64,000 nucleotides of DNA from positions 30,831 through 94,830 of IMG/VR virus record IMGVR_UViG_3300005529_000003; one strand, written 5' to 3'. The position numbers were made by a program, and so were the translations under genes. The stretch is from a virus. Position 1 is the stretch's first letter, and each line of letters starts with the position of its first letter. Positions 4,000 through 25,723 of this stretch are shown here, in pieces. The notes under the pieces were generated by a model that was given only the letters and a program-made list of their open reading frames with translations, searched no databases and was not told the DNA's origin.

Positions 4000-4024
4000 C
4001 GTAACCTCCGAAGTGTAGTGAAGT

Positions 4025-13325: not shown

Positions 13326-13406
13326 GACAGACTCCTTGCCATGAAGTGAAGGAGTTCAAGCAAGCTGCAACACACAGCTTCACCAACTCAAATCACTTCA
13401 ACTCAA

Positions 13407-14622: not shown

Positions 14623-15870
14623 ATGACACACCACAAGAAGAAAAAGAAGCGTCGTGGAAGGGGCGAAGGATCGATCTACAAGAGGGGCGACGGCCGGTGG
14701 GTCGCGATACTCGCTTCAGGGGAGGTTGACATTACAACGGGGAGGAAGAAGCGGAAGTACATCTACGCTGAGTCGAAGACAGAGGTCCTTCATCTTCTGG
14801 AAGATCACAAGGCGAAGTTAAAGGCGAAGCGTGTCGAGTCTCATGATAAGCGACTCCTTTGTGATTACCTCGACTCCTGGTTGGAGACGAAGAAACTTTC
14901 TGTAGAGAAACGGACACAGGAGTCGTACGAGTCGCATGTCCGCGTCCACATCAAGCCGAATCTCGGATCGATCAAGCTGCAAGATCTGACTTCGCAGAAC
15001 GTTCAGGACTTCTACTCAAAGCTCGTCAAGGATGGTGTCTCCTCGACGCAGGCGCGCAAGGTCGGGACGACACTTGGAGTCGCCCTGGCGGACGCGGTGA
15101 GGGCCCGACATCTGCTAGTCAATCCCTCTGTCGGCATTCGCAAGCCCAAGAAGGTCTTCAAGGAGAGTGAAGTATGGGACGAGGAGCAGTTGCGTTCTTT
15201 TCTCGCCGCCGCAAAACAAGACGAACGGCACTGGCCTTTCTACTTGACGATGCTCGACAGTGGACTACGCCCCGGTGAGCTTTGGGCATTGCGTTGGTCC
15301 GACGTGAACCTCGAGTTGGGAATACTGACGATCCGCAGGGCGATTGAAGGCGGATTAGGACCAGTCGGCGTCAAGGCTCCCAAGACGTCAAAAGGTCGGC
15401 GAAATGTCGTTCTATCTCCGCCGACAGTTGCAGTCCTTCGTGAACTGAGAGAGAAACGGCTGTTAGCAGGCGCGAAGGAAACGGACCTCATCTTCTGCAA
15501 CATCCGCGGCGGCTTCATGAGGTTCTCGAACTTCTATCGCGATTCATACAACCCCCTTCTGGAACGAGCGAACCTTCCTCACAAGCCGCTCTACACCCTC
15601 CGACACACATCCGCCACGCTCTTGCTCCTCCTGGGAGAGCCAGCGAAAATTGTCTCAGAGCGCCTTGGGCACTCGACAACGAGGCTCACACTTGATACTT
15701 ATAGTCATGTCCTCCCGTCCATGCAAAAGACGACAGCGGACAGGCTTGGCGGCCTGCTCGAGGGACTCATGGCGAAGAAAGATTTGAAACCTTCAGAGGC
15801 CGACGGGGTTAATACTCGGGTTGTAGATGGCGGTCCCGGAGGCTGCAACTCAGCAGATGGACAAACGTAA
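14623..15870 (+). CDS. int: Tyrosine integrase
   Basis: N-terminal RGRGEGSIYKR arm domain; GLRPGEL (R), PKT (K), YTLRH (H/Y-x-x-R), LGHS, TLDTYSH (Y). Confidence 0.97.
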   Translation: MTHHKKKKKRRGRGEGSIYKRGDGRWVAILASGEVDITTGRKKRKYIYAESKTEVLHLLEDHKAKLKAKRVESHDKRLLCDYLDSWLETKKLSVEKRTQESYESHVRVHIKPNLGSIKLQDLTSQNVQDFYSKLVKDGVSSTQARKVGTTLGVALADAVRARHLLVNPSVGIRKPKKVFKESEVWDEEQLRSFLAAAKQDERHWPFYLTMLDSGLRPGELWALRWSDVNLELGILTIRRAIEGGLGPVGVKAPKTSKGRRNVVLSPPTVAVLRELREKRLLAGAKETDLIFCNIRGGFMRFSNFYRDSYNPLLERANLPHKPLYTLRHTSATLLLLLGEPAKIVSERLGHSTTRLTLDTYSHVLPSMQKTTADRLGGLLEGLMAKKDLKPSEADGVNTRVVDGGPGGCNSADGQT

Positions 15871-17369: not shown

Positions 17370-19970
17370 TTACCCGCCGATGTCCGACCCCTTCGGCGGT
17401 TTCGGCAGCGACTTCAGGTCGGGGAGTTCCTCCGGGAACCAGGGGTGGGTTTCGCCGACTTCCTCACGCAGGAACTGGGACGTCGATTGGCCCTGCTCGG
17501 TAAATCCAGGTTCGAGACGGGCTTCGCGGGACTCCTTCGCCGCCTCGCCGGCCCAGATCCTCGCCCGCTCCTCGATGGGTAGGTCTGAGTCCAGATAAGT
17601 TCCTTGCGAGGATTCTCTTTCGACCTCGAAGGCGATGTCCGCTGCCTCCTGTGCCGACATCCTCCGATCTCTCCTGCCAATTCTTTCTCCCCTAGCCTCT
17701 TCTCCTTCCTCGAACGACTCGAGGGCAGAACCCTCGTCCGCTGCGTTTTCTCCTTTACTCCGCCCTTTCGAGATCGTGTTTGTTTTTTCGAATTCGAAGC
17801 TGTCGAGCTTCGCATCGAGTTCCTCGATCAATTGGTTGCCGAGTTGCTGAGAGAGGGGAAGCTCATAATCCTGGATGTCGAACTCCTCTATCTCGTCGTC
17901 GAGGTAACGAATGAGGAGGCGGTGGATGTCTTCCCGCAGGAGGTCAGCTTCGTCCTTGATCGTCTCCAGATCGTGTGCTGCGACTCGGTCGGCCGTGATC
18001 TTCTCCAAACGGCGGCTGAGGTCTTCGTAAGCCCTCCACGGTCCCTGCCTCATCTCGTCCTGTTCCTTGAAGTGGGCTCGCCACCAGCCAGGAGATCCTG
18101 GTGTTTGACCTTCCTTAGCGGACCACTCCTTTTGCCCCATCGACCACCAGTCCTCGTTCCCCATCGACGGACGCCATTCAGGGTCGGTCCTAGCGTTCAA
18201 CGAATGCAGGCGGGCGAGTCGTTTCTGGAAGAGGGCCTTGGAGACTTTCTGGTCTGCGTGGTCTTTCCCCTGGTTCGACAGAATGTCTTGCTGCTTCTCA
18301 AGGAAGTTTTCGTCACGGTTGTCGTCAATGAATTCGATGAACTGGACGGACTCGAGGAGTTTCTGCTGACCTTCTGGCGACATCGACATGATTTGCTGGA
18401 CGGTCCACCGCTTCTTCATCGCCTCATGGTGTCGTGATTCTTCCTCTTCTTCCTTGATTTCCCTTTTATCGCGGTATTGCTCCGCGAAAGCCGCTGGCGA
18501 TTCCCGTTCCTTCTCCACGACTTGCTCGGCGAACTCGGGCGTACCCACCTTGACGATCTCACCCTTCGAGCCGAGGGCGACAGGCCCTTCTCCTCGTCTG
18601 CGATAGTCGTCTTCCGTCAACCTCTGCACCGTTGATGGGTGAGAGAGACTTTGGTATTCGCGATCGAATTCCGCTTCTCGTCGCCTTCCTGTCCCCGTCT
18701 TCAAGTATTCGTTGGCGTACTTGACCATGAACGAGTCGGGCTCGAAGGAGTCGTACTCGAACTCTGAGGGGGCTTTCGGCGTCGTCGCAGCCGCCTTGTT
18801 GATCGTGTGGATCTGGTCGCGGTAAACCTTGCGGATCTTTCCCTCGTCGGTGTAGACGAAGAACTCGTAAGGCTTCGTGTCCTTCGCCTTCTTGTACACA
18901 ACGAACCCGTGCATGACGACGTTCTTGCCTGTCTGTTCGTCCTTATCCTTGAGGACGATCTGGGCCTCGAGGGTGTTTTCCTCCTTCCGCTCCATGTGCC
19001 CGCGTTTAGCTAGCCAGATGATGTAGCCGGTCGGACACTCCTCGATCCGCTTGCCGAAGAACTTCCCCTTCGTCATGACGTAAACATCGCCAGGTGGTTT
19101 CCGGTAGGAGACGACCAGGGCGTACTCGAGTTGGGCCGAGAGCGTAAGGGCTTCGCCAGCGAGAGGGGCCTGGACTCGCTCTCTCCGCCCGATAGCCGCT
19201 TTCAGCTCCTGTGCCGCTTTTCCCAGGCGATCGAGGTTGTTGGCGTACCAGTTCAGGTCGCGTTCCTGTTCTCCCGCCTTGATGTCTCCCTTGTGAATTC
19301 CTTTCTTGAGTCTCGTGTAGGCGTCGATGACGTCCTGGTGGATCTCCGCCTGTGACTTCAGGGCTTCCGAAAGACCCTTCTCCTCGGCTTCCTTGATGAT
19401 TTCCTTGAGTCTGCCCGCGATGCCTGCACTCTCGGCATTCGTCCGGAAGCTAAAGCCAGTGGCGTATCCGCTGTCTTCCAGTGTGTCCACGAGTTTGAGC
19501 CGCTTCTCAACTTCCCTTACATCCTCCTTCGAGTCCACAAAGAGAACGGCATTCCCAGGAAGTCGTTTGACCGTCGTCAGGAGGAACCAGTAACGGTCCA
19601 CAACTTTTGCCAACTCCTTTTCTGCCGTCTGTTTCGCATTGATCTTGGCCTTCTCTGCCTGAAAACGAAGCTTCTCGACTGCGGCGATGTACTCATCTCT
19701 GGCCCGCTGCACCTTCATTTCCTTCGACTTATCGTTCGGGCTATTTCTGCTGATCTGAGCGAATTTCTCATAAGCTTTCCGTTCCCTGACCTTCAACTCG
19801 CCTTCAATGAATTCGACTTCCTTCTTCAGCTCCTTCTCCACTTTCCTGTTAAGGATTTCTGGAGCCAACTCGGACGGCGTCTTCTTGTTTAGTAACGGGT
19901 GAACGCTCGTAACGAGGACGTGGTTCCTGTTCTTTGCGTCGTATTTATCACGACCAACTTCAATTTTCAT
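17370..19970 (-). CDS. Large charged hypothetical protein (866 aa) with an internal DUF3820/ExoX-C-like motif
   Basis: Long ORF; MTKGKFFGKRIEECPTGYIIWL resembles MPFGKyKG..l.dlP..Yl.W. Confidence 0.8.
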   Translation of the reverse strand: MKIEVGRDKYDAKNRNHVLVTSVHPLLNKKTPSELAPEILNRKVEKELKKEVEFIEGELKVRERKAYEKFAQISRNSPNDKSKEMKVQRARDEYIAAVEKLRFQAEKAKINAKQTAEKELAKVVDRYWFLLTTVKRLPGNAVLFVDSKEDVREVEKRLKLVDTLEDSGYATGFSFRTNAESAGIAGRLKEIIKEAEEKGLSEALKSQAEIHQDVIDAYTRLKKGIHKGDIKAGEQERDLNWYANNLDRLGKAAQELKAAIGRRERVQAPLAGEALTLSAQLEYALVVSYRKPPGDVYVMTKGKFFGKRIEECPTGYIIWLAKRGHMERKEENTLEAQIVLKDKDEQTGKNVVMHGFVVYKKAKDTKPYEFFVYTDEGKIRKVYRDQIHTINKAAATTPKAPSEFEYDSFEPDSFMVKYANEYLKTGTGRRREAEFDREYQSLSHPSTVQRLTEDDYRRRGEGPVALGSKGEIVKVGTPEFAEQVVEKERESPAAFAEQYRDKREIKEEEEESRHHEAMKKRWTVQQIMSMSPEGQQKLLESVQFIEFIDDNRDENFLEKQQDILSNQGKDHADQKVSKALFQKRLARLHSLNARTDPEWRPSMGNEDWWSMGQKEWSAKEGQTPGSPGWWRAHFKEQDEMRQGPWRAYEDLSRRLEKITADRVAAHDLETIKDEADLLREDIHRLLIRYLDDEIEEFDIQDYELPLSQQLGNQLIEELDAKLDSFEFEKTNTISKGRSKGENAADEGSALESFEEGEEARGERIGRRDRRMSAQEAADIAFEVERESSQGTYLDSDLPIEERARIWAGEAAKESREARLEPGFTEQGQSTSQFLREEVGETHPWFPEELPDLKSLPKPPKGSDIGG

Positions 19971-20087
19971 CGGGCTGCTGAGCAGAAGAAAGAAAGAGAG
20001 TTATCCTTCCTGGTGCGGAAGAAGTCCGCAACAAGAATCTTCTGTCAGCATCATCGCTCTAATTCACTCACTTCTTGATTTCACTTA

Positions 20088-20180
20088 ATGTTCGACACCC
20101 TCCTAGGTAAAATCAAGACGTTCTGGAAGTCCCTCTGGGCTGGTAGTTCGTCTCATCGCGAGGTGGCGTCCCGTCTACGC
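20088..20180 (+). pseudogene. Displaced original 5' end of the portal gene
   Basis: MFDTLLGKIKTFWKSLWAGSSSHREVASRL duplicates the N-terminus of 20725..22188, then runs into antisense HNH sequence. Confidence 0.8.
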
Positions 20181-20711
20181 CTAAGTAGGGAAGTTAAGCT
20201 TGGCGAATTCTCCGTATCTTTCAATAGCGGCAGAGTCGTACATTCTGGCTGCCTCTTCTTCGCTGTCCGAACTCCCTAGATATACAGTCTCGCTTTGGTC
20301 GTTTTTTATTTGAGCCCGCCACTTTGCGTACTGCTTATGCCAGCTAACCCCCTTGAACCGGCTGGTTTTACCAGGCTTGTTTTGGGGTGTCGAGTTCCTC
20401 CTGTTTTGTCTGTGAGTAGCTAGACGAAGATTTGAGCGAACGTTGTTCAGGCCGTTTTGGTCGATGTGGTCAACTTCCATCCCTCTAGGCGCATTCATGA
20501 TGAGTCGGTGCAGATAAACAGTTCTCCAGATCCCCTCGACTTTCACTTTTGCTGCGGCATATACGCCGTTTCTCTTTCTGTTCAAAAACCAGTGATAGTT
20601 CCTTACCAACTCGATATCTTCCGGACTAATCCAAGTTACGATTCCCTCACGCAGTTCAATTGAGTAACGAGCAGTTGTCGATTGCAGGGTATTTTCAGCT
20701 AGTTCAGACAT
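20181..20711 (-). CDS. HNH-AP2 homing endonuclease
   Basis: YLHRLIM...EVDHIDQNGLNNVRSNLR (HNH_3); SRFKGVSW...WRAQI...YLG...EEEAARMYD (AP2); AT-rich relative to flanks. Confidence 0.93.
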   Translation of the reverse strand: MSELAENTLQSTTARYSIELREGIVTWISPEDIELVRNYHWFLNRKRNGVYAAAKVKVEGIWRTVYLHRLIMNAPRGMEVDHIDQNGLNNVRSNLRLATHRQNRRNSTPQNKPGKTSRFKGVSWHKQYAKWRAQIKNDQSETVYLGSSDSEEEAARMYDSAAIERYGEFAKLNFPT

Positions 20712-20724
20712 TTTAAGATTGTAG

Positions 20725-22188
20725 TTGGTCGTGGGTCTAATCAACAAAGTTGTTCAATTTTGGAAGTCTTTATGGGCAGGCAGTTCTTCCCATAGAGAAA
20801 TGGCCTCGCTATTACAATATGGGGCTGGCCTCGGGACTTTCTCAGGAGCGTGGACGGACTCGCGCATCGAGCTGGTGCGGCACTTCCGCCACTGGGTCTA
20901 CATCGCCGTCGATCGCATCGCGACAAAAGTAGCCACGCAGGTTCCGAACGTCACGTTCGTTCGTGCGGACCTGGATTACATGGACGCGGCGAAGAAGCGT
21001 AGAAACGGCAAGGCGACTCTTTCTCCCTATCACCGCAGCAAGGCTCTCACTCCTCTCCGCAGTCATGAAGAACTCGAGCCGGCAAGAGAAGATCACCCGC
21101 TTGTCAGACTCCTCCACGACCCGAACGAACCCGACACCGCCTATGACCTGTGGTACGAGACGGTCCTGTTCTTGAAGCTCACCGGCTCTTCCTACTGGTG
21201 GATTCCGAAGAACAAGACGACGGGGTTGCCCGAGGCGATCTGGGTCATCCCCTCTCACTGGATCTGGCCTGTCGTCGGCAAGGATCGCACGATCGACGGC
21301 TACGAGGTCCGCCCGGTTGAGGGCAACTACCTCCGCAAGTTCCTCCCTTACGAGGACGTCCTCCACTTCAAGTTCAAATCACCGACTTCAAAGATCGACG
21401 GTTACTCCCCGCTCACCGCAGTCAACAACTGGGTGGACACGCAGGAGAGCGTTGATCGCTCCCGCTTCTTCTTTTTCCGCAACGGCACGTTCCCAACCGT
21501 CGCCATTGAATTCGCGGGCGACCTTCAGGATCTGACGAAGGAGAAACTCGATCAGATCGAGGCGAAGTTGATGAACCGCTCTCAAGGCGAAACAAAAAGC
21601 GGGAAACCACTTTTTGTTCCTCCGGGGATGAAGCTCAAGCCGCTGTGGATTACCGCTCCGGAAATGGGCTTCATCGAGAGCGCCGAGCAACTCCGCGACA
21701 ACATCCTGGCAGCGTTCGGCGTGCCGGCGTGTATCGCTCAGATCAACTCCGATATGACGTACGGGAGCGTGACGGCGGCTCAGGCCGGCTTCTTCACGAT
21801 GACCGTCAATCCTCTTCTTCGTTTTCTCGGCCAGGTGATTACTGAGAAGATGGCGTGGCTCTACGATCGCAAGCTCCGCGTGTGGTGGGAGGACATGACG
21901 CCCGACGATCCTGAGATGGTGGAAAAGCGTATCCAGACGGATCTTCTCGCCGCTGCCAGGACGCCCAACGAGATTCGCGGGCTTCGCGGATACGCCGCTT
22001 ACACGCACGGCGGTGACGATCCCATCGTCGCCCGTAACCTCGCCGTCCTGCCGATCGGTACGGGGCGAAAGCCTGAGTGGCAAATCGCTGATCCAGGGCT
22101 CGACAACGAACGCAACGCCCTTAAAGACCCCTCTTCTCCCACCGAAAAGCCGCTCGTCGAAAACGACGACACTGACGATAAAGAATAA
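20725..22188 (+). CDS. Portal protein (HK97-like)
   Basis: VYIAVDRIA, HPLVRLLHDPN, VLHFK...GYSPL, ILAAFGVP, TPNEIR; start codon (TTG/GTG) uncertain. Confidence 0.93.
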   Translation: MVVGLINKVVQFWKSLWAGSSSHREMASLLQYGAGLGTFSGAWTDSRIELVRHFRHWVYIAVDRIATKVATQVPNVTFVRADLDYMDAAKKRRNGKATLSPYHRSKALTPLRSHEELEPAREDHPLVRLLHDPNEPDTAYDLWYETVLFLKLTGSSYWWIPKNKTTGLPEAIWVIPSHWIWPVVGKDRTIDGYEVRPVEGNYLRKFLPYEDVLHFKFKSPTSKIDGYSPLTAVNNWVDTQESVDRSRFFFFRNGTFPTVAIEFAGDLQDLTKEKLDQIEAKLMNRSQGETKSGKPLFVPPGMKLKPLWITAPEMGFIESAEQLRDNILAAFGVPACIAQINSDMTYGSVTAAQAGFFTMTVNPLLRFLGQVITEKMAWLYDRKLRVWWEDMTPDDPEMVEKRIQTDLLAAARTPNEIRGLRGYAAYTHGGDDPIVARNLAVLPIGTGRKPEWQIADPGLDNERNALKDPSSPTEKPLVENDDTDDKE

Positions 22189-23795
22189 TGAGTACTCTCG
22201 AAATCAAATCCGTCTTCCTCTCCGTCGCCGAGAGGGAGAAGAAACTTTCTGAACTCGCGAATCACAAGGACTCGCAGAGTCTTTGTTTCAAAGACGCCTC
22301 TCAGTTCTCCTACACGCTGTCGGAGTCGAAGGGAGGTATTGTCGGTCACGACCACACCGATCCGTCCGTCCTTGAGATCAACGAGAAGGAGATGTGGGCG
22401 GAGTTCAAGCTAACACAACTCCGCAGAGATCACCACGGCGACATCGTCGAGCCGAAGGGCTGTCTGCCCTTCCTCTCGGAGTACGAGAAGAACGCGCAGG
22501 TGTTCTTCAGCCACCGCTCCAGTGATGTACCGATCGCCAAGTCCACCGATGCCAACGGCAAACTTCGCCTGCGAGTCACCGACGAGGACATGGTCGCAAG
22601 GGCGTACTTCCACAACGTCACGCAGGAGAGCGTCGAGGTCTTTAAGCTCATCACGCTCGGGTACTTGAAGGGGGCATCGATCGGCTTCGTGCCCGTCCTC
22701 GGAGAGTGGATCGAAAGGCCCGAACGCAAGAAAGACAAGGACGAAAACAAGAACGAGATCGACTTCGACTTCGGCGGCATCCGTTTCAAGAAGTGGAAAC
22801 TTCTGGAGTGGAGCGTCGTCCCGATCCCCGCCAACGCTGACGCCATTCGCGGCTTCCTGTCACGCGAGAAGTCCCTCTCCCCCATCACCCGCAACTTCCT
22901 CTCTCCTTACGCCGCCGAGAGGAAGGCGTTCCTCTTCCTTCCCGGTCAACTCACCAAAGAGATTCAACATATGTCTGTCGATACGAACACTGAAGAAAAT
23001 AAAATCACAACCGCAGCGGAGGAGCTTACCAAGGCGGTTGAAAACATGGACAAAGTCATTGAGACGATGAAGGACGTCACAAAAAATATCGATTCGATGG
23101 TTGTTGAAGCTACCGTCACTGATAACCCTGAAACGAAGAACGTCGAAGTTGTTGAGAAGGCCGTAGAGAAGAGCGTGGAAGCTACTTCCGCCGCGGAGAT
23201 GAACTCCTCCGACAAGACTCCCAGCGACGACATGCCGTACGGATGCAGCGTCCTCTGCAAGGCTCACGAGCTGCACAAGGCGGCTCATGATCACTTCATG
23301 ACGAGTTACAAGAAGATCGACAACGAGAAGACGATCAAGTTCGTCACCCGTCATGTGAACAAGTTTGCCAAGGCGATGAACGCTCTGTCGAAGTTCGCGG
23401 CAGAGAATTACCCGAAGCACGTCAAGGAGCCGGTCGAAGTCGCGGGCATCGACAACAGCGACGATGACGAACCGGAACACAAGTCGCTCTTTATTGATGA
23501 TTCTCTTGTCGAGGTTGTCGAATTCCTGAAGGAACTCGCGGAGGATAACAAGCTCACGAAGGCCCAGAAAGCCGCGTGCAAGTTGTATTCTCAGTCGCTC
23601 AAATCCGTTAATTTTACCAGTTCACCGGCAAAACCGCAGGAAGTGAAAACGGTTTTCGAGGAAAAAACATCGGCGACCGAAACTCAGACCCCTAACAAGG
23701 AAGAGGCGCATATTGTCAAAGTTCTGGAGAACTGCGAGAAGGTCGATGAGAAGATCAAGAGTTTGTTTTACAAGTTGTTCGGCACAGAGATGTAA
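22188..23795 (+). CDS. HK97-family prohead protease with C-terminal scaffold-like extension
   Basis: RDHHGDIV, FFSH, GYLKGASIGF, LLEWSVVPIPANADA. Confidence 0.9.
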   Translation: MSTLEIKSVFLSVAEREKKLSELANHKDSQSLCFKDASQFSYTLSESKGGIVGHDHTDPSVLEINEKEMWAEFKLTQLRRDHHGDIVEPKGCLPFLSEYEKNAQVFFSHRSSDVPIAKSTDANGKLRLRVTDEDMVARAYFHNVTQESVEVFKLITLGYLKGASIGFVPVLGEWIERPERKKDKDENKNEIDFDFGGIRFKKWKLLEWSVVPIPANADAIRGFLSREKSLSPITRNFLSPYAAERKAFLFLPGQLTKEIQHMSVDTNTEENKITTAAEELTKAVENMDKVIETMKDVTKNIDSMVVEATVTDNPETKNVEVVEKAVEKSVEATSAAEMNSSDKTPSDDMPYGCSVLCKAHELHKAAHDHFMTSYKKIDNEKTIKFVTRHVNKFAKAMNALSKFAAENYPKHVKEPVEVAGIDNSDDDEPEHKSLFIDDSLVEVVEFLKELAEDNKLTKAQKAACKLYSQSLKSVNFTSSPAKPQEVKTVFEEKTSATETQTPNKEEAHIVKVLENCEKVDEKIKSLFYKLFGTEM

Positions 23796-24202: not shown

Positions 24203-24250
24203 CCAGCGGCACTCATCTCTCGCCGCTCACTTCGGAGAAATCCAACTCTA

Positions 24251-25675
24251 ATGTCCGCAGATAACAAGACTCCTTCCGTTACTGACTCGCTTGCTCAGAA
24301 GGTCGAGTCGCTGGCCGATTCGCAGAAGAAGACCGTTGAGGTCCTCGAGAAACTCGTCGAGAAGACATCCTCGAATGCCGAGCAGAACCGCAAGTCGCTC
24401 TTCGGTGGCGGCGCTCCTAACGTCCGCACTGGCGAGAGCGCTCTAACGAGTCGCGGCTTCAGCTACATGAAGCTGCTCCAGGCGATGTCGAAGATCGTTC
24501 CTTATGAGGACGCGAAGGTCGAGATCGACCTCCACAATCGCCTCCAGAAGCTGTACGTCGATAAGTTCGGCTACCAGAAGGCCGAGACGAACTCGATCCT
24601 CGTCCCCATGTCCTCGTCCTTCCTGGCGATCAGTTGCCCGGAAGAGCGGCAGTTCAGCGAGGAAGTCGGCCAGGTCGTCAAGGCCGGTCTGCACGGGCTC
24701 GACTGGCATGAGTACGTCGCTCTTCGCAAGACGCTGTCGTGGACGGACGAGTCTGCTCTCGGTTCGTTCGTCGCCCCGCCGATCCAGGGCGAACTGATCG
24801 AGCTGTTCCGCAACCGTGAAGTCTTCATGCGGGCGGGGGCTCGTGCGATGCCGATGCCGCCCAACGGCCGCATTGTCTTCCCCCGTCACACCGGGCCGTC
24901 GAGTGCCTACTTCATCGGCGAGAACACGTCGATCACCACGAGCGAGCAGACCTCCGGCGATCTGACCCTCCAGGCGAAGAAACTCGCCGCCCGCGTCACC
25001 GTCCCCAACGAGCTGTTCCGCTTTAGCTCCGTCAGCATGGAGATGTTCCTCCGCGACGATATCGCGAAGGTCTGCTCCCTGAAGCTCGATAGCGCCCTGC
25101 TCCAGGGCGTCGGCAGCACGGTCGCTCCCAAGGGCCTCATCAACTACTCCGGCATCAATACCCACACCGCTCTTACTGTTGGCGCGAACGGCAACACCTT
25201 CCAGCCGGAAGACGTCGCCACGATGATCTCGAAGGTCGAGGAGCAGAACGCCGTCTTCAAGGGCTTCGTGATGCGCCCGCAGCTTTGGGGTGGGATCGTC
25301 AACCGCCGATCGGACGCTGTCAACGCGGGCGATTCGAAGGGGCCATTCGTTTTCAACTACCTGCGTGGCTACGAGCAGAGTCAGAAGCTCGAGAATGGCA
25401 CCGACGCCAACCTCTACGGCTACCCGGTGTGGAAGAGTACGAACATCTCCAACACCCGCTCGAAGGGGAGTGCCTCGAACCTGACCTACATCCTCGGCGG
25501 CGACTTCAACGACTACGTCCTCGCGATGAGTGCCGTCATGGAGTTCGCCATCAACACGCAGGGTGACACGGTCTTCGCCAACGACCAGACGCAGATCCGC
25601 GCCATCATGATGTGTGACGGCGGGCCTCGCCACGAGGCTTCGTTCATCCTCTGCGATAACCTGCTGAACGCCTAA
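24251..25675 (+). CDS. Major capsid protein (HK97 fold)
   Basis: GSFVAPPIQGELIELFR, AYFIGE, LTLQAKKLAARVTVPNEL, LDSALLQG.G...PKGL, LYGYPV, GDFNDY. Confidence 0.95.
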   Translation: MSADNKTPSVTDSLAQKVESLADSQKKTVEVLEKLVEKTSSNAEQNRKSLFGGGAPNVRTGESALTSRGFSYMKLLQAMSKIVPYEDAKVEIDLHNRLQKLYVDKFGYQKAETNSILVPMSSSFLAISCPEERQFSEEVGQVVKAGLHGLDWHEYVALRKTLSWTDESALGSFVAPPIQGELIELFRNREVFMRAGARAMPMPPNGRIVFPRHTGPSSAYFIGENTSITTSEQTSGDLTLQAKKLAARVTVPNELFRFSSVSMEMFLRDDIAKVCSLKLDSALLQGVGSTVAPKGLINYSGINTHTALTVGANGNTFQPEDVATMISKVEEQNAVFKGFVMRPQLWGGIVNRRSDAVNAGDSKGPFVFNYLRGYEQSQKLENGTDANLYGYPVWKSTNISNTRSKGSASNLTYILGGDFNDYVLAMSAVMEFAINTQGDTVFANDQTQIRAIMMCDGGPRHEASFILCDNLLNA

Positions 25676-25723
25676 GCAGTCAGCTTTTTCTAACAAACTC
25701 ACTTATCTCGGAGAAAGCTGATA

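Follow-up and report, generated by a model that had tools for sequence, protein, structure and literature searches.

At the 5′ end of the HK97-type portal gene of a soil phage lies an insertion that has invaded the gene within its first 30 codons (Table 1; the window is the 64,000 nt of the phage genome that we analysed). An in-register portal N-terminus is present twice, 637 bp apart, and the two copies flank a minus-strand gene for an HNH_3+AP2 protein. Codon alignment confirms this arrangement, which the original prediction had described: the copies align codon for codon and without gaps, with the TTG of copy 2 opposite the ATG of copy 1. Over codons 1–30, 19 of 30 amino acids are identical (63%), 13 of the 17 degenerate codons are spelled differently, and 52/90 nucleotides match (58%). 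Within the stretch FWKSLWAGSSSHRE all 14 residues are identical and, as predicted, 9 of 12 degenerate codons differ, for a nucleotide identity of 31/42. A flank-to-flank tblastx comparison gave E = 6e-11, while the best of 336 mismatched-flank controls gave 0.006. The portal homology of copy 1 ends after 30 codons, and its reading frame then enters the HNH gene antisense and stops; copy 2 is continuous with the portal ORF, a divergent gene end joined in frame to the gene body. The putatively native end is kept as a fragment beyond the endonuclease gene (20088-20177, dead end at 20279), and an in-frame TAG at 20722-20724, in the spacer, closes the portal frame upstream of copy 2. The insert is tightly packed, its length being fully accounted for (531+13+90+3 = 637 nt). 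With both junctions placed by protein alignment and composition only, the gap from the last homologous codon of copy 1 to the HNH stop is 3 nt, that between the two start codons is 13 nt, and only 16 nt of the insert are both non-coding and non-duplicated. The 63-aa stub ORF has no Pfam match, and no similar short protein was found among 5.8 billion sequences.

Table 1. Features of the invaded portal locus, in window coordinates.
Feature	Position	Strand	Basis or remark
Divergent intergenic region	19971..20087	.	Separates the original portal start from the 866-aa gene that runs leftward; ORF map
Copy 1, putatively native portal codons 1-30 (MFDTLLGKIKTFWKSLWAGSSSHREVASRL), now a stub	20088..20177	+	Codon alignment, N-termini of relatives, GC3
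Dead-end ORF, 63 aa, ATG start	20088..20279	+	Copy 1 plus 33 codons read antisense to the HNH 3′ end
HNH_3 + AP2 endonuclease gene, intact, 176 aa	20181..20711	-	Stop 20181-20183, ATG 20709-20711
Spacer, 13 nt, HNH ATG to portal TTG (divergent)	20712..20724	.	Sequence
Copy 2, putatively imported start of the portal gene (codons 1 to ~35), continuous with the gene body	20725..20830	+	Closes the low-GC3 tract on the right
HK97-type portal gene, 487 aa when counted from TTG 20725	20725..22188	+	Pfam Phage_portal, E 8e-47

Which of the two copies belongs to this genome? GC3 is 0.67 in copy 1, 0.51 in the HNH gene, 0.43 in copy 2 and 0.87 in portal codons 36-65, compared with a genome mean of 0.69. 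The low-GC3 tract spans 20181 to about 20830, that is, the HNH gene together with copy 2, and portal GC3 rises to 0.8-1.0 from about codon 36; the right boundary near 20830 is approximate and set by composition only. The GC3 of the HNH gene is lower than that of all 28 genes of at least 200 aa in the window, and a first-30-codon GC3 as low as that of copy 2 is found in only 5% of 59 genes, a contrast based on 30-35 codons (about the 5th percentile). The earlier description of copy 1 as an ATG-led start with genome-typical codons that runs into a dead end, and of copy 2 as an AT-richer start fused to the portal gene, holds on both counts. Composition thus supports the view that copy 1 would be native and copy 2 imported. 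At the protein level the two are equally close to the related portal protein P0002 (15/24 each, by hand count).

The original prediction took the synonymous differences between the copies for a special re-spelling of the gene start. Portal orthologues at 30-95% amino acid identity, however, differ at 54-68% (up to 84%) of the codons for identical residues, and the 75% seen between the copies in FWKSLWAGSSSHRE is as expected of the 5′ end of a foreign orthologue. Since ordinary orthologues differ to this extent, no selection for re-spelled codons is needed, and we reject it; because the divergence lies in the ordinary orthologue range, copy 2 is best read as the gene start of a donor phage. A transposon-like target-site duplication was likewise rejected, the copies being only 58% identical in nucleotides.

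Copy 1 matches the uninterrupted N-termini of P0002, P0004-6 and P0008 (62-75% identical); because these proteins carry the peptide uninterrupted, it is a real part of the portal family. The database gene call for the invaded gene, P0001, begins at ATG 20800, so that the gene caller dropped 25 conserved portal residues, and the close homologues P0003 and P0007 are also called from later starts. The near-invariance of R24 in 20 portal homologues argues for a start upstream of M26. We infer that the portal protein is translated from the imported start, at TTG 20725 or at the alternative GTG 20731. No SD-like motif precedes the copy 1 ATG, TTG 20725 or the other candidate starts, and such motifs precede only 21 of 60 genes.

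Neither an HNH gene nor a duplicate was found upstream of the portal gene in about 100 (86-100) related loci (52 from IMG/VR, 51 from metagenomes), and such a sporadic distribution is typical of homing endonuclease genes. A single-sequence search of IMG/VR with the portal protein gave no match, the back-translated FWKSLWAGSSSHRE pattern had 0 matches in IMG/VR, and blastn of 20088-20900 against 50,697 phage records also gave none. The locus is present in one DNA sequencing run only, its probable source, and in none of the RNA runs listed; no endonuclease-less variant was found among the contigs of that DNA run.

The HNH protein matches Pfam HNH_3 (PF13392, E 3.8e-9, above the curated cut-off) and, in its C-terminal part, Pfam AP2 (PF00847, E 2.8e-9, 37.6 bits against a cut-off of 33.3), as well as PHROG 99 'HNH endonuclease' (E 8e-38). 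Its sequence contains the catalytic motif DH...N...N and ends in GEFAKLNFP, as is typical of the family, and residues D81-H82, N90, N94 and N103 occupy invariant or near-invariant columns across 30 homologues. Profile matches in the PDB include plant AP2/ERF domains (E 1e-23 to 1e-8) and I-HmuI (1u3e, E 6e-7). The genome carries a single copy of the HNH gene, and a search for its donor found none, the nearest homologue being about 50% identical. The sequence supports the assignment of the insert as a putative homing-type HNH-AP2 endonuclease gene, free-standing and lodged within the 5′ end of an essential gene.

Does the layout recur? The original prediction had suggested a database search for HNH genes flanked by gene starts duplicated at the protein level, and we applied a flank-duplicate test to 168 unique HNH-AP2 loci in IMG/VR, with 336 mismatched-flank controls. 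Five of the 167 other loci carry protein-level flanking duplicates, compared with 0 of the 336 controls at that level; about 3% of HNH-AP2 genes in IMG/VR show the layout. In L120, L271 and L150 a dead-end start is followed by the endonuclease gene and then by a new start, while in L066 the endonuclease gene uses the old start of the host gene, and in L072 it is the gene end that is replaced. The endonuclease gene and the attached copy have GC3 values of 0.45 and 0.28 in L120, against 0.77-0.80, and of 0.35 and 0.36 in L271, against 0.62-0.72. The host gene of L150 is weakly portal-like. Among the loci that bear duplicates, the portal locus is the only antisense case.

We propose that the insert is probably a splicing-free homing cassette of the gene-end-replacing kind, comprising the HNH-AP2 gene and the first ~35 portal codons of a donor and inserted at about codon 30. 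The enzyme would nick or cut an uninvaded portal allele near codon 30, and the break would be repaired from an invaded genome during co-infection. The right end would recombine within the conserved portal body, near 20830, and the left end would recombine in, or would originally have been joined at, the recipient's own codons 1-30. The outcome would be a native stub (copy 1), the antisense HNH gene, the donor start (copy 2) and the portal body, in that order. The stub would be a dead end yet usable in further homing, and copy 1 is likely to be the left homology arm. An invaded allele should escape further cutting, its target region having been both interrupted and exchanged by the insertion. 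Cleavage, resistance and the mode of HNH gene expression are what we infer here. The anatomy, the lack of any intron or intein sign, the fused second start and the recurrence all favour the splicing-free homing element of the original prediction; its special recoding falls away.

Could the arrangement have arisen without homing? An illegitimate crossover between related phages could have left a mosaic recombination scar, in which a passive HNH gene sits beside a donor portal sequence and does not propagate itself, its enzyme being inactive or cutting elsewhere, as it may. Nuclease genes are indeed known at boundaries of genetic exchange in phages (PMC10448857), and the synonymous divergence of the copies is only that between ordinary orthologues. 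We consider a scar unlikely, however, because an equally tight arrangement directly next to an HNH-AP2 gene is seen in every case at six unrelated host genes, and in 0 of 336 controls at that level; furthermore, the HNH reading frame is unbroken and its catalytic residues are preserved, and the junctions lie 3 and 13 nt from the ends of the endonuclease ORF. It is very unlikely that the HNH protein is an immobile packaging accessory or other domesticated nuclease, similar to HK97 gp74 or the GVE2-type HrdP: the gene interrupts the portal gene, is antisense and compositionally foreign, and is absent from the about 100 related portal loci, and the protein is of the HNH_3+AP2 homing type with an I-HmuI-like HNH part, not the zinc-binding [CxxC]2 packaging type. 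What speaks for such a role is that HNH genes are often found next to those for terminase and portal, where they function in packaging (PMC12724721; PMC3592412).

An unrecognised intron, intein or bypass that removes the insert would make copy 1, which still has an ATG, the native upstream region and 30 undamaged codons, the real start and copy 2 redundant. We regard this as extremely unlikely. Within 19500-21500, Rfam searches detected no group I or II intron and no other ribozyme, with E values up to 10 included, and the antisense ORF takes up 531 of the 637 nt. Since the 3-nt and 13-nt gaps fill out the 637 nt, the insert has no room for a ribozyme, a point on which the original prediction was right. 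The stop at 20277-20279 in the copy 1 frame means that the insert cannot be an intein, and with the ORF antisense and that frame stopped we found no intron or intein signs at the locus. Splicing would also leave a conserved, in-frame and exactly aligned copy 2 pointless, and the sense-oriented L120, L271 and L150 have the same dead-end stubs. We give almost no credence to an assembly artefact in which a chimeric join of reads from two strains made the duplication, even though the genome was assembled from a metagenome and the only run that holds the locus is its probable source. A check for the misassembly that would have counted against the original prediction gave base-for-base agreement: in the independent Logan assembly of the same run, one 24.9-kb contig covers 19300-21900 with 0 differences, no joints and a uniform depth of 15.7. 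In addition, the genome closes with terminal repeats, and an assembler cannot confuse two copies that share only 58% of their nucleotides.

The gene-end-replacing design of the proposed homing cassette is known from yeast and from fungal mitochondria. The WHO elements at the yeast aldolase gene FBA1 (Coughlan et al. 2020, PMC7282813; Osborne et al. 2026, bioRxiv 10.64898/2026.08.13.744650) are, like the portal insert, splicing-free, and they combine an endonuclease gene with a divergent essential-gene end joined to the gene body and a native fragment on the far side. Their homing has been shown experimentally (PMC7282813); the displaced fragment is the homology arm, and the replaced end confers resistance. 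In contrast to the HNH+AP2 protein of the portal insert, the WHO proteins are LAGLIDADG/intein-derived with zinc fingers, and they replace the 3′ half of a nuclear yeast gene in meiosis rather than the first ~30-35 codons of a phage portal gene. Because it is the 5′ end that is replaced here, a start codon and expression signals must come with the cassette as well. The antisense endonuclease gene is a further difference from WHO elements, as is their tandem cluster of older remnants, which we did not find at the phage locus. Similarly, in the mORF 'gene hybrids' of fungal mitochondria (Allomyces macrogynus atp6; Glomus atp6, atp9, cox2 and nad3), in which gene-end replacement is reported as demonstrated (PMC3630166), the host terminus is foreign, divergent in nucleotides and similar in protein, the native terminus persists and there is no splicing. 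The mORFs encode LAGLIDADG or GIY-YIG enzymes, replace C-termini, are often in frame with the host gene and reside in organelle genomes, and so differ from the portal insert. Since its enzyme is HNH_3+AP2 rather than LAGLIDADG or GIY-YIG, the portal insert is an analogue of the WHO elements and mORFs by mechanism and not a member by descent.

Among phage systems, the T4-type MobA/gene 60 topoisomerase cassette (Bonocora et al. 2011, as cited in bioRxiv 10.1101/2022.08.31.505936) resembles the portal insert in having an HNH endonuclease inside an essential ORF, no intron or intein, and divergent insert-derived sequence, which protects against re-cutting. MobA divides its host gene, giving two polypeptides that carry extra tails and a translational bypass of 50 nt, whereas the portal gene remains undivided and a short stub is given up. 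The T4 SegF, SegB and MobE genes, and likewise the Xanthomonas phage HNN-AP2 genes, are located intergenically, with clean replacement of their flanks. SegF, SegB and MobE, which like the HNH-AP2 gene are free-standing phage endonuclease genes, show intronless homing and break repair with co-conversion of flanking markers (PMC2988022, PMC2330249, PMC2790892). The HNH/HNN+AP2 architecture occurs widely and sporadically across phages, and the study of the Xanthomonas phage genes reports no conserved flanking sequences (PMC2248197). Finally, the 'hidden' out-of-frame HNH within the methylase gene of mycobacteriophage ShiLan (PMC11855218) is, like the proposed portal cassette, an HNH homing element that lies within coding sequence and for which no intron or intein can be detected. 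In ShiLan, in-frame read-through turns the insert into an additional loop of the host protein, whereas the portal gene would restart from a spare 5′ end.

Homing elements within genes are usually held to survive only by means of introns or inteins. The WHO elements provided in 2020 a third way to survive in genes, in yeast (PMC7282813), and in the phage literature we found no paper that describes an endonuclease gene with a spare gene end. There is perhaps an even chance that phage endonucleases include a widespread, undescribed class of splicing-free cassettes that carry a spare gene end, usually the start together with a new start codon, with portal genes perhaps as repeat targets (the present locus and L150) and with the antisense form found here. 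If common in phages, such cassettes would explain some short 'orphan' ORFs and some late or non-ATG gene starts in annotations, and they would show how essential structural genes become 5′ mosaics. Their signature, an endonuclease gene between protein-level duplicates, would enable a census and the prediction of target sites, and the natural pairs of sensitive and resistant targets could be used to study the specificity of AP2-guided HNH enzymes.

If such a class exists, its antisense form would need the promoter of the HNH gene to be placed within the imported start, tying the nuclease gene and its putatively resistance-conferring start to each other. The TACAAT at 20718-20723 on the minus strand, 6 nt before the HNH ATG, is present as the original prediction stated, and most of it falls within the 20712..20724 spacer. 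We do not endorse its reading as a leaderless promoter, since a promoter scan of the region found sites no more numerous than in shuffles and no above-chance signal for the antisense HNH gene. The expression signals of the native portal gene presumably lie in 19971..20087. Two terminator-like hairpins, not above chance, are located on the plus strand within the insert and, if real, would block portal transcription from the native promoter.

How is the start of the portal gene duplicated? Two portal N-termini stand 637 bp apart around the minus-strand HNH-AP2 endonuclease gene (the HNH gene), and in every part the sequence described in the original prediction is present in the window, so that the observation itself is confirmed. 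Copy 1 opens with ATG, reads MFDTLLGKIKTFWKSLWAGSSSHREVASRL and continues into antisense sequence of the HNH gene, where its frame stops after 63 codons. Copy 2 opens with TTG 20725, 13 nt past the HNH ATG and immediately 3' of an in-frame TAG, and its N-terminus, (M)VVGLINKVVQFWKSLWAGSSSHREMASLLQYG..., is fused to the rest of the 487-codon portal frame. The copies align codon for codon without gaps, the TTG opposite the ATG; 19 of 30 residues are identical, and a 14-residue core is the same in both, and 9 of the 12 degenerate codons in that core have different spellings. In tblastx the left and right flanks of the HNH gene match at E 6e-11 (best of 336 mismatched-flank controls, 0.006).

Features of the portal region (window positions) and of other IMG/VR HNH-AP2 loci (L rows)
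Feature	Position	Strand	GC3	Evidence or layout
Tyrosine integrase	14623-15870	+		PHROG 1, E 6e-67
866-aa gene, upstream of and divergent from portal	17370-19970	-		no credible Pfam match, no PHROG match
Dead-end ORF (copy 1 + antisense read of HNH gene)	20088-20279	+		ATG start; 63 codons
Copy 1, codons 1-30	20088-20177	+	0.67	
HNH gene	20181-20711	-	0.51, lower than all 28 genes >= 200 aa	176 aa; Pfam HNH_3 + AP2, both above curated cut-offs; PHROG 99 'HNH endonuclease'
Copy 2, codons 1-35	20725 to ~20830	+	0.43	
Portal codons 36-65			0.87	
Portal gene	20725-22188	+		Pfam Phage_portal E 8e-47; 487 codons
Prohead protease fusion	22188-23795			head module
HK97-type capsid	24251-25675			head module
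TCACTTC-like motif sites	24226-24250, 25699-25723; 4000-4024 (-), 13326-13350 (-); 20058-20087			
L120	2170-3522			dead-end stub with host start, sense endonuclease gene, second start fused to full gene
L271	1322-2376			as L120
L150	1358-3465			as L120
L066	2450-3872			endonuclease ORF uses host ATPase gene's original start, spare start after
L072	1999-3046			duplicated 3' end; displaced end fused to endonuclease C-terminus

The closest portal homologues (P0002, P0004, P0005, P0006 and P0008; 62-75% identical) carry the same N-terminal motif in an uninterrupted single ORF, for example MGSLVSRIKSFFKGLWTGSSSHREMAALLQYG, and by sequence comparison we take the N-terminal peptide to be a real part of the protein. 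In an alignment of 20 portal homologues R24 is nearly invariant, which argues for a translation start 5' of M26 (TTG 20725 or GTG 20731) and against ATG 20800, the start chosen in the database call of this portal (P0001). Like most genes in the window, TTG 20725 has no SD-like motif. Two close homologues, P0003 and P0007, have late called starts, one MAALLQYG... (the M26 position) and the other MGRSGSREMAALL...; these two homologues may have non-ATG starts or be invaded alleles. Two longer homologues, P0073 and P0085 (691 and 824 aa), list extra precomputed domains, PF03412 (peptidase C39), PF13529 and PF11814, suggestive of a fusion between a portal and a protease-like module.

Which copy is native? 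Against a mean GC3 of 0.69 for the window genes, copy 1 is typical and copy 2 AT-rich, as had been proposed, and GC3 switches within the portal gene at about codon 33-38, near 20830. Low GC3 is not general at gene starts here, because only 5% of 59 genes reach 0.43 or less over their first 30 codons. This contrast marks the HNH gene with copy 2 (20181 to about 20830) as apparently foreign and copy 1 as apparently native; few codons enter the comparison, and it is the weakest link of the argument.

An intron or intein is ruled out by the stopped frame of copy 1 and by a search of 19500-21500 that returned no intron or ribozyme (Rfam, E up to 10). The predicted lack of space for a ribozyme holds: the 637 inserted bases comprise 531 of antisense ORF, 90 of copy 2 and 16 that are neither. 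Nor are the copies a transposon-style target duplication, being only 58% identical in nucleotides over 30 codons, and an HNH protein of the packaging machinery is excluded by domain type, the I-HmuI-like HNH part being of the homing type and joined to AP2. As far as testable, an assembly artefact is contradicted by an independent assembly of the run that contains the record, in which a 24.9-kb contig is identical across 19300-21900 with even depth; since the record probably comes from that very sample, the second assembly is not independent sampling. The portal relatives also speak against a packaging HNH: in roughly 100 loci, drawn from IMG/VR and metagenomes, no HNH-AP2-type gene and no duplicated start occurs 5' of the portal.

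We propose that the window holds a homing element resembling the splicing-free WHO elements of yeast. In the WHO model, shown experimentally, the endonuclease cuts the sensitive allele of an essential gene, the invaded chromosome serves as repair template so that the endonuclease gene is copied along with a divergent, resistant gene end, and the recipient's own end is displaced as a fragment that later acts as a homology arm (PMC7282813; bioRxiv 10.64898/2026.08.13.744650). The anatomy of the locus fits this model; the mORF 'gene hybrids' of fungal mitochondria are built alike, but at C-termini (PMC3630166). On this model the enzyme would cut close to codon 30 of the portal gene, the right crossover would fall near 20830 in the conserved portal body (GAWTDSRIELVRHFRHW), and copy 1 with the native upstream region would form the left arm. 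Unlike WHO elements, the element in the window would replace a 5' end, so the cassette must bring a start codon; its nuclease gene is also antisense and would thus need a separate promoter, placed within the imported portal codons. The TACAAT of the putative promoter does stand 6 nt ahead of the HNH ATG, with TTGATT 15 nt upstream of it; a promoter scan of the region gave no signal above shuffles. The native portal promoter would now lie about 640 nt upstream of the portal. Terminator-like hairpins with T-runs occur on the portal strand inside the HNH gene (20362-20384 and 20554-20579, +), in a number not above chance; if they do act as terminators, transcription from the native promoter would not reach the portal gene.

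The recoding of copy 2, stressed in the original prediction, is not special. Related portal genes, compared as 360 pairs, differ in spelling at 54-68% (maximum 84%) of identical-residue degenerate codons at any amino acid identity from 30% to 95%; the observed 75% is what a 5' end taken from an orthologue in another phage would show, and selection for re-spelling need not be invoked. The spelling difference may well make the copy 2 site uncuttable.

Does the layout recur? Three different seed alignments yielded 243 HNH-AP2 loci from IMG/VR (174 unique genes, 168 testable loci), in which the left and right flanks of each endonuclease gene were compared on the same strand, with 336 mismatched flanks as controls. 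Besides the window locus, five loci with protein-level duplicates pass at E <= 2e-5 (controls at that level, 0/336); gene starts are involved at four and a gene end at one. At L066 the endonuclease ORF opens with the first 13 codons of the host gene, and the L150 host gene is weakly portal-like (Phage_portal_2, E 1.4e-4, under cut-off). At L120 and L271 the GC3 of the endonuclease gene and attached copy is much below that of the stub and its neighbours. From these loci, flank duplication is a recurring property of the HNH-AP2 family (about 3% of loci). The window locus is the only antisense case in the sample.

Full-text literature searching, with little reach into subscription journals, found no description of a phage endonuclease with protein-level duplicates of a gene start on its two sides; absence is not proven. 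Besides WHO elements and mORF gene hybrids, it returned the T4 MobA/gene 60 cassette, the 'ShiLan' HNH read-through case, one study of nucleases at boundaries of genetic exchange and one survey of Skunavirus HNH genes. We regard it as a phage form of a known kind of element, new in its HNH-AP2 enzyme, antisense orientation and replaced 5' end. The predicted interpretation is partly supported, with cleavage, resistance, start codon and promoter as its putative parts.

Finally, we note the genome setting. The source record, of which the window covers bases 30831-94830, is complete (94,830 bp, direct terminal repeats; IMG/VR), and the sole sequencing run containing it is labelled soil metagenome. 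The integrase, in a 94.8-kb genome that has terminal repeats, makes a temperate lifestyle probable for this phage. The rightward gene block begins with the portal gene; unusually for an HK97-type head module, its immediate 5' neighbourhood contains no terminase gene. Several start codons, including that of the capsid gene, have a repeated TCACTTC-like motif close by on their 5' side, in many cases with GGAG after it, which may be a common 5'-leader or promoter element; the motif also precedes the copy 1 ATG, there without GGAG.
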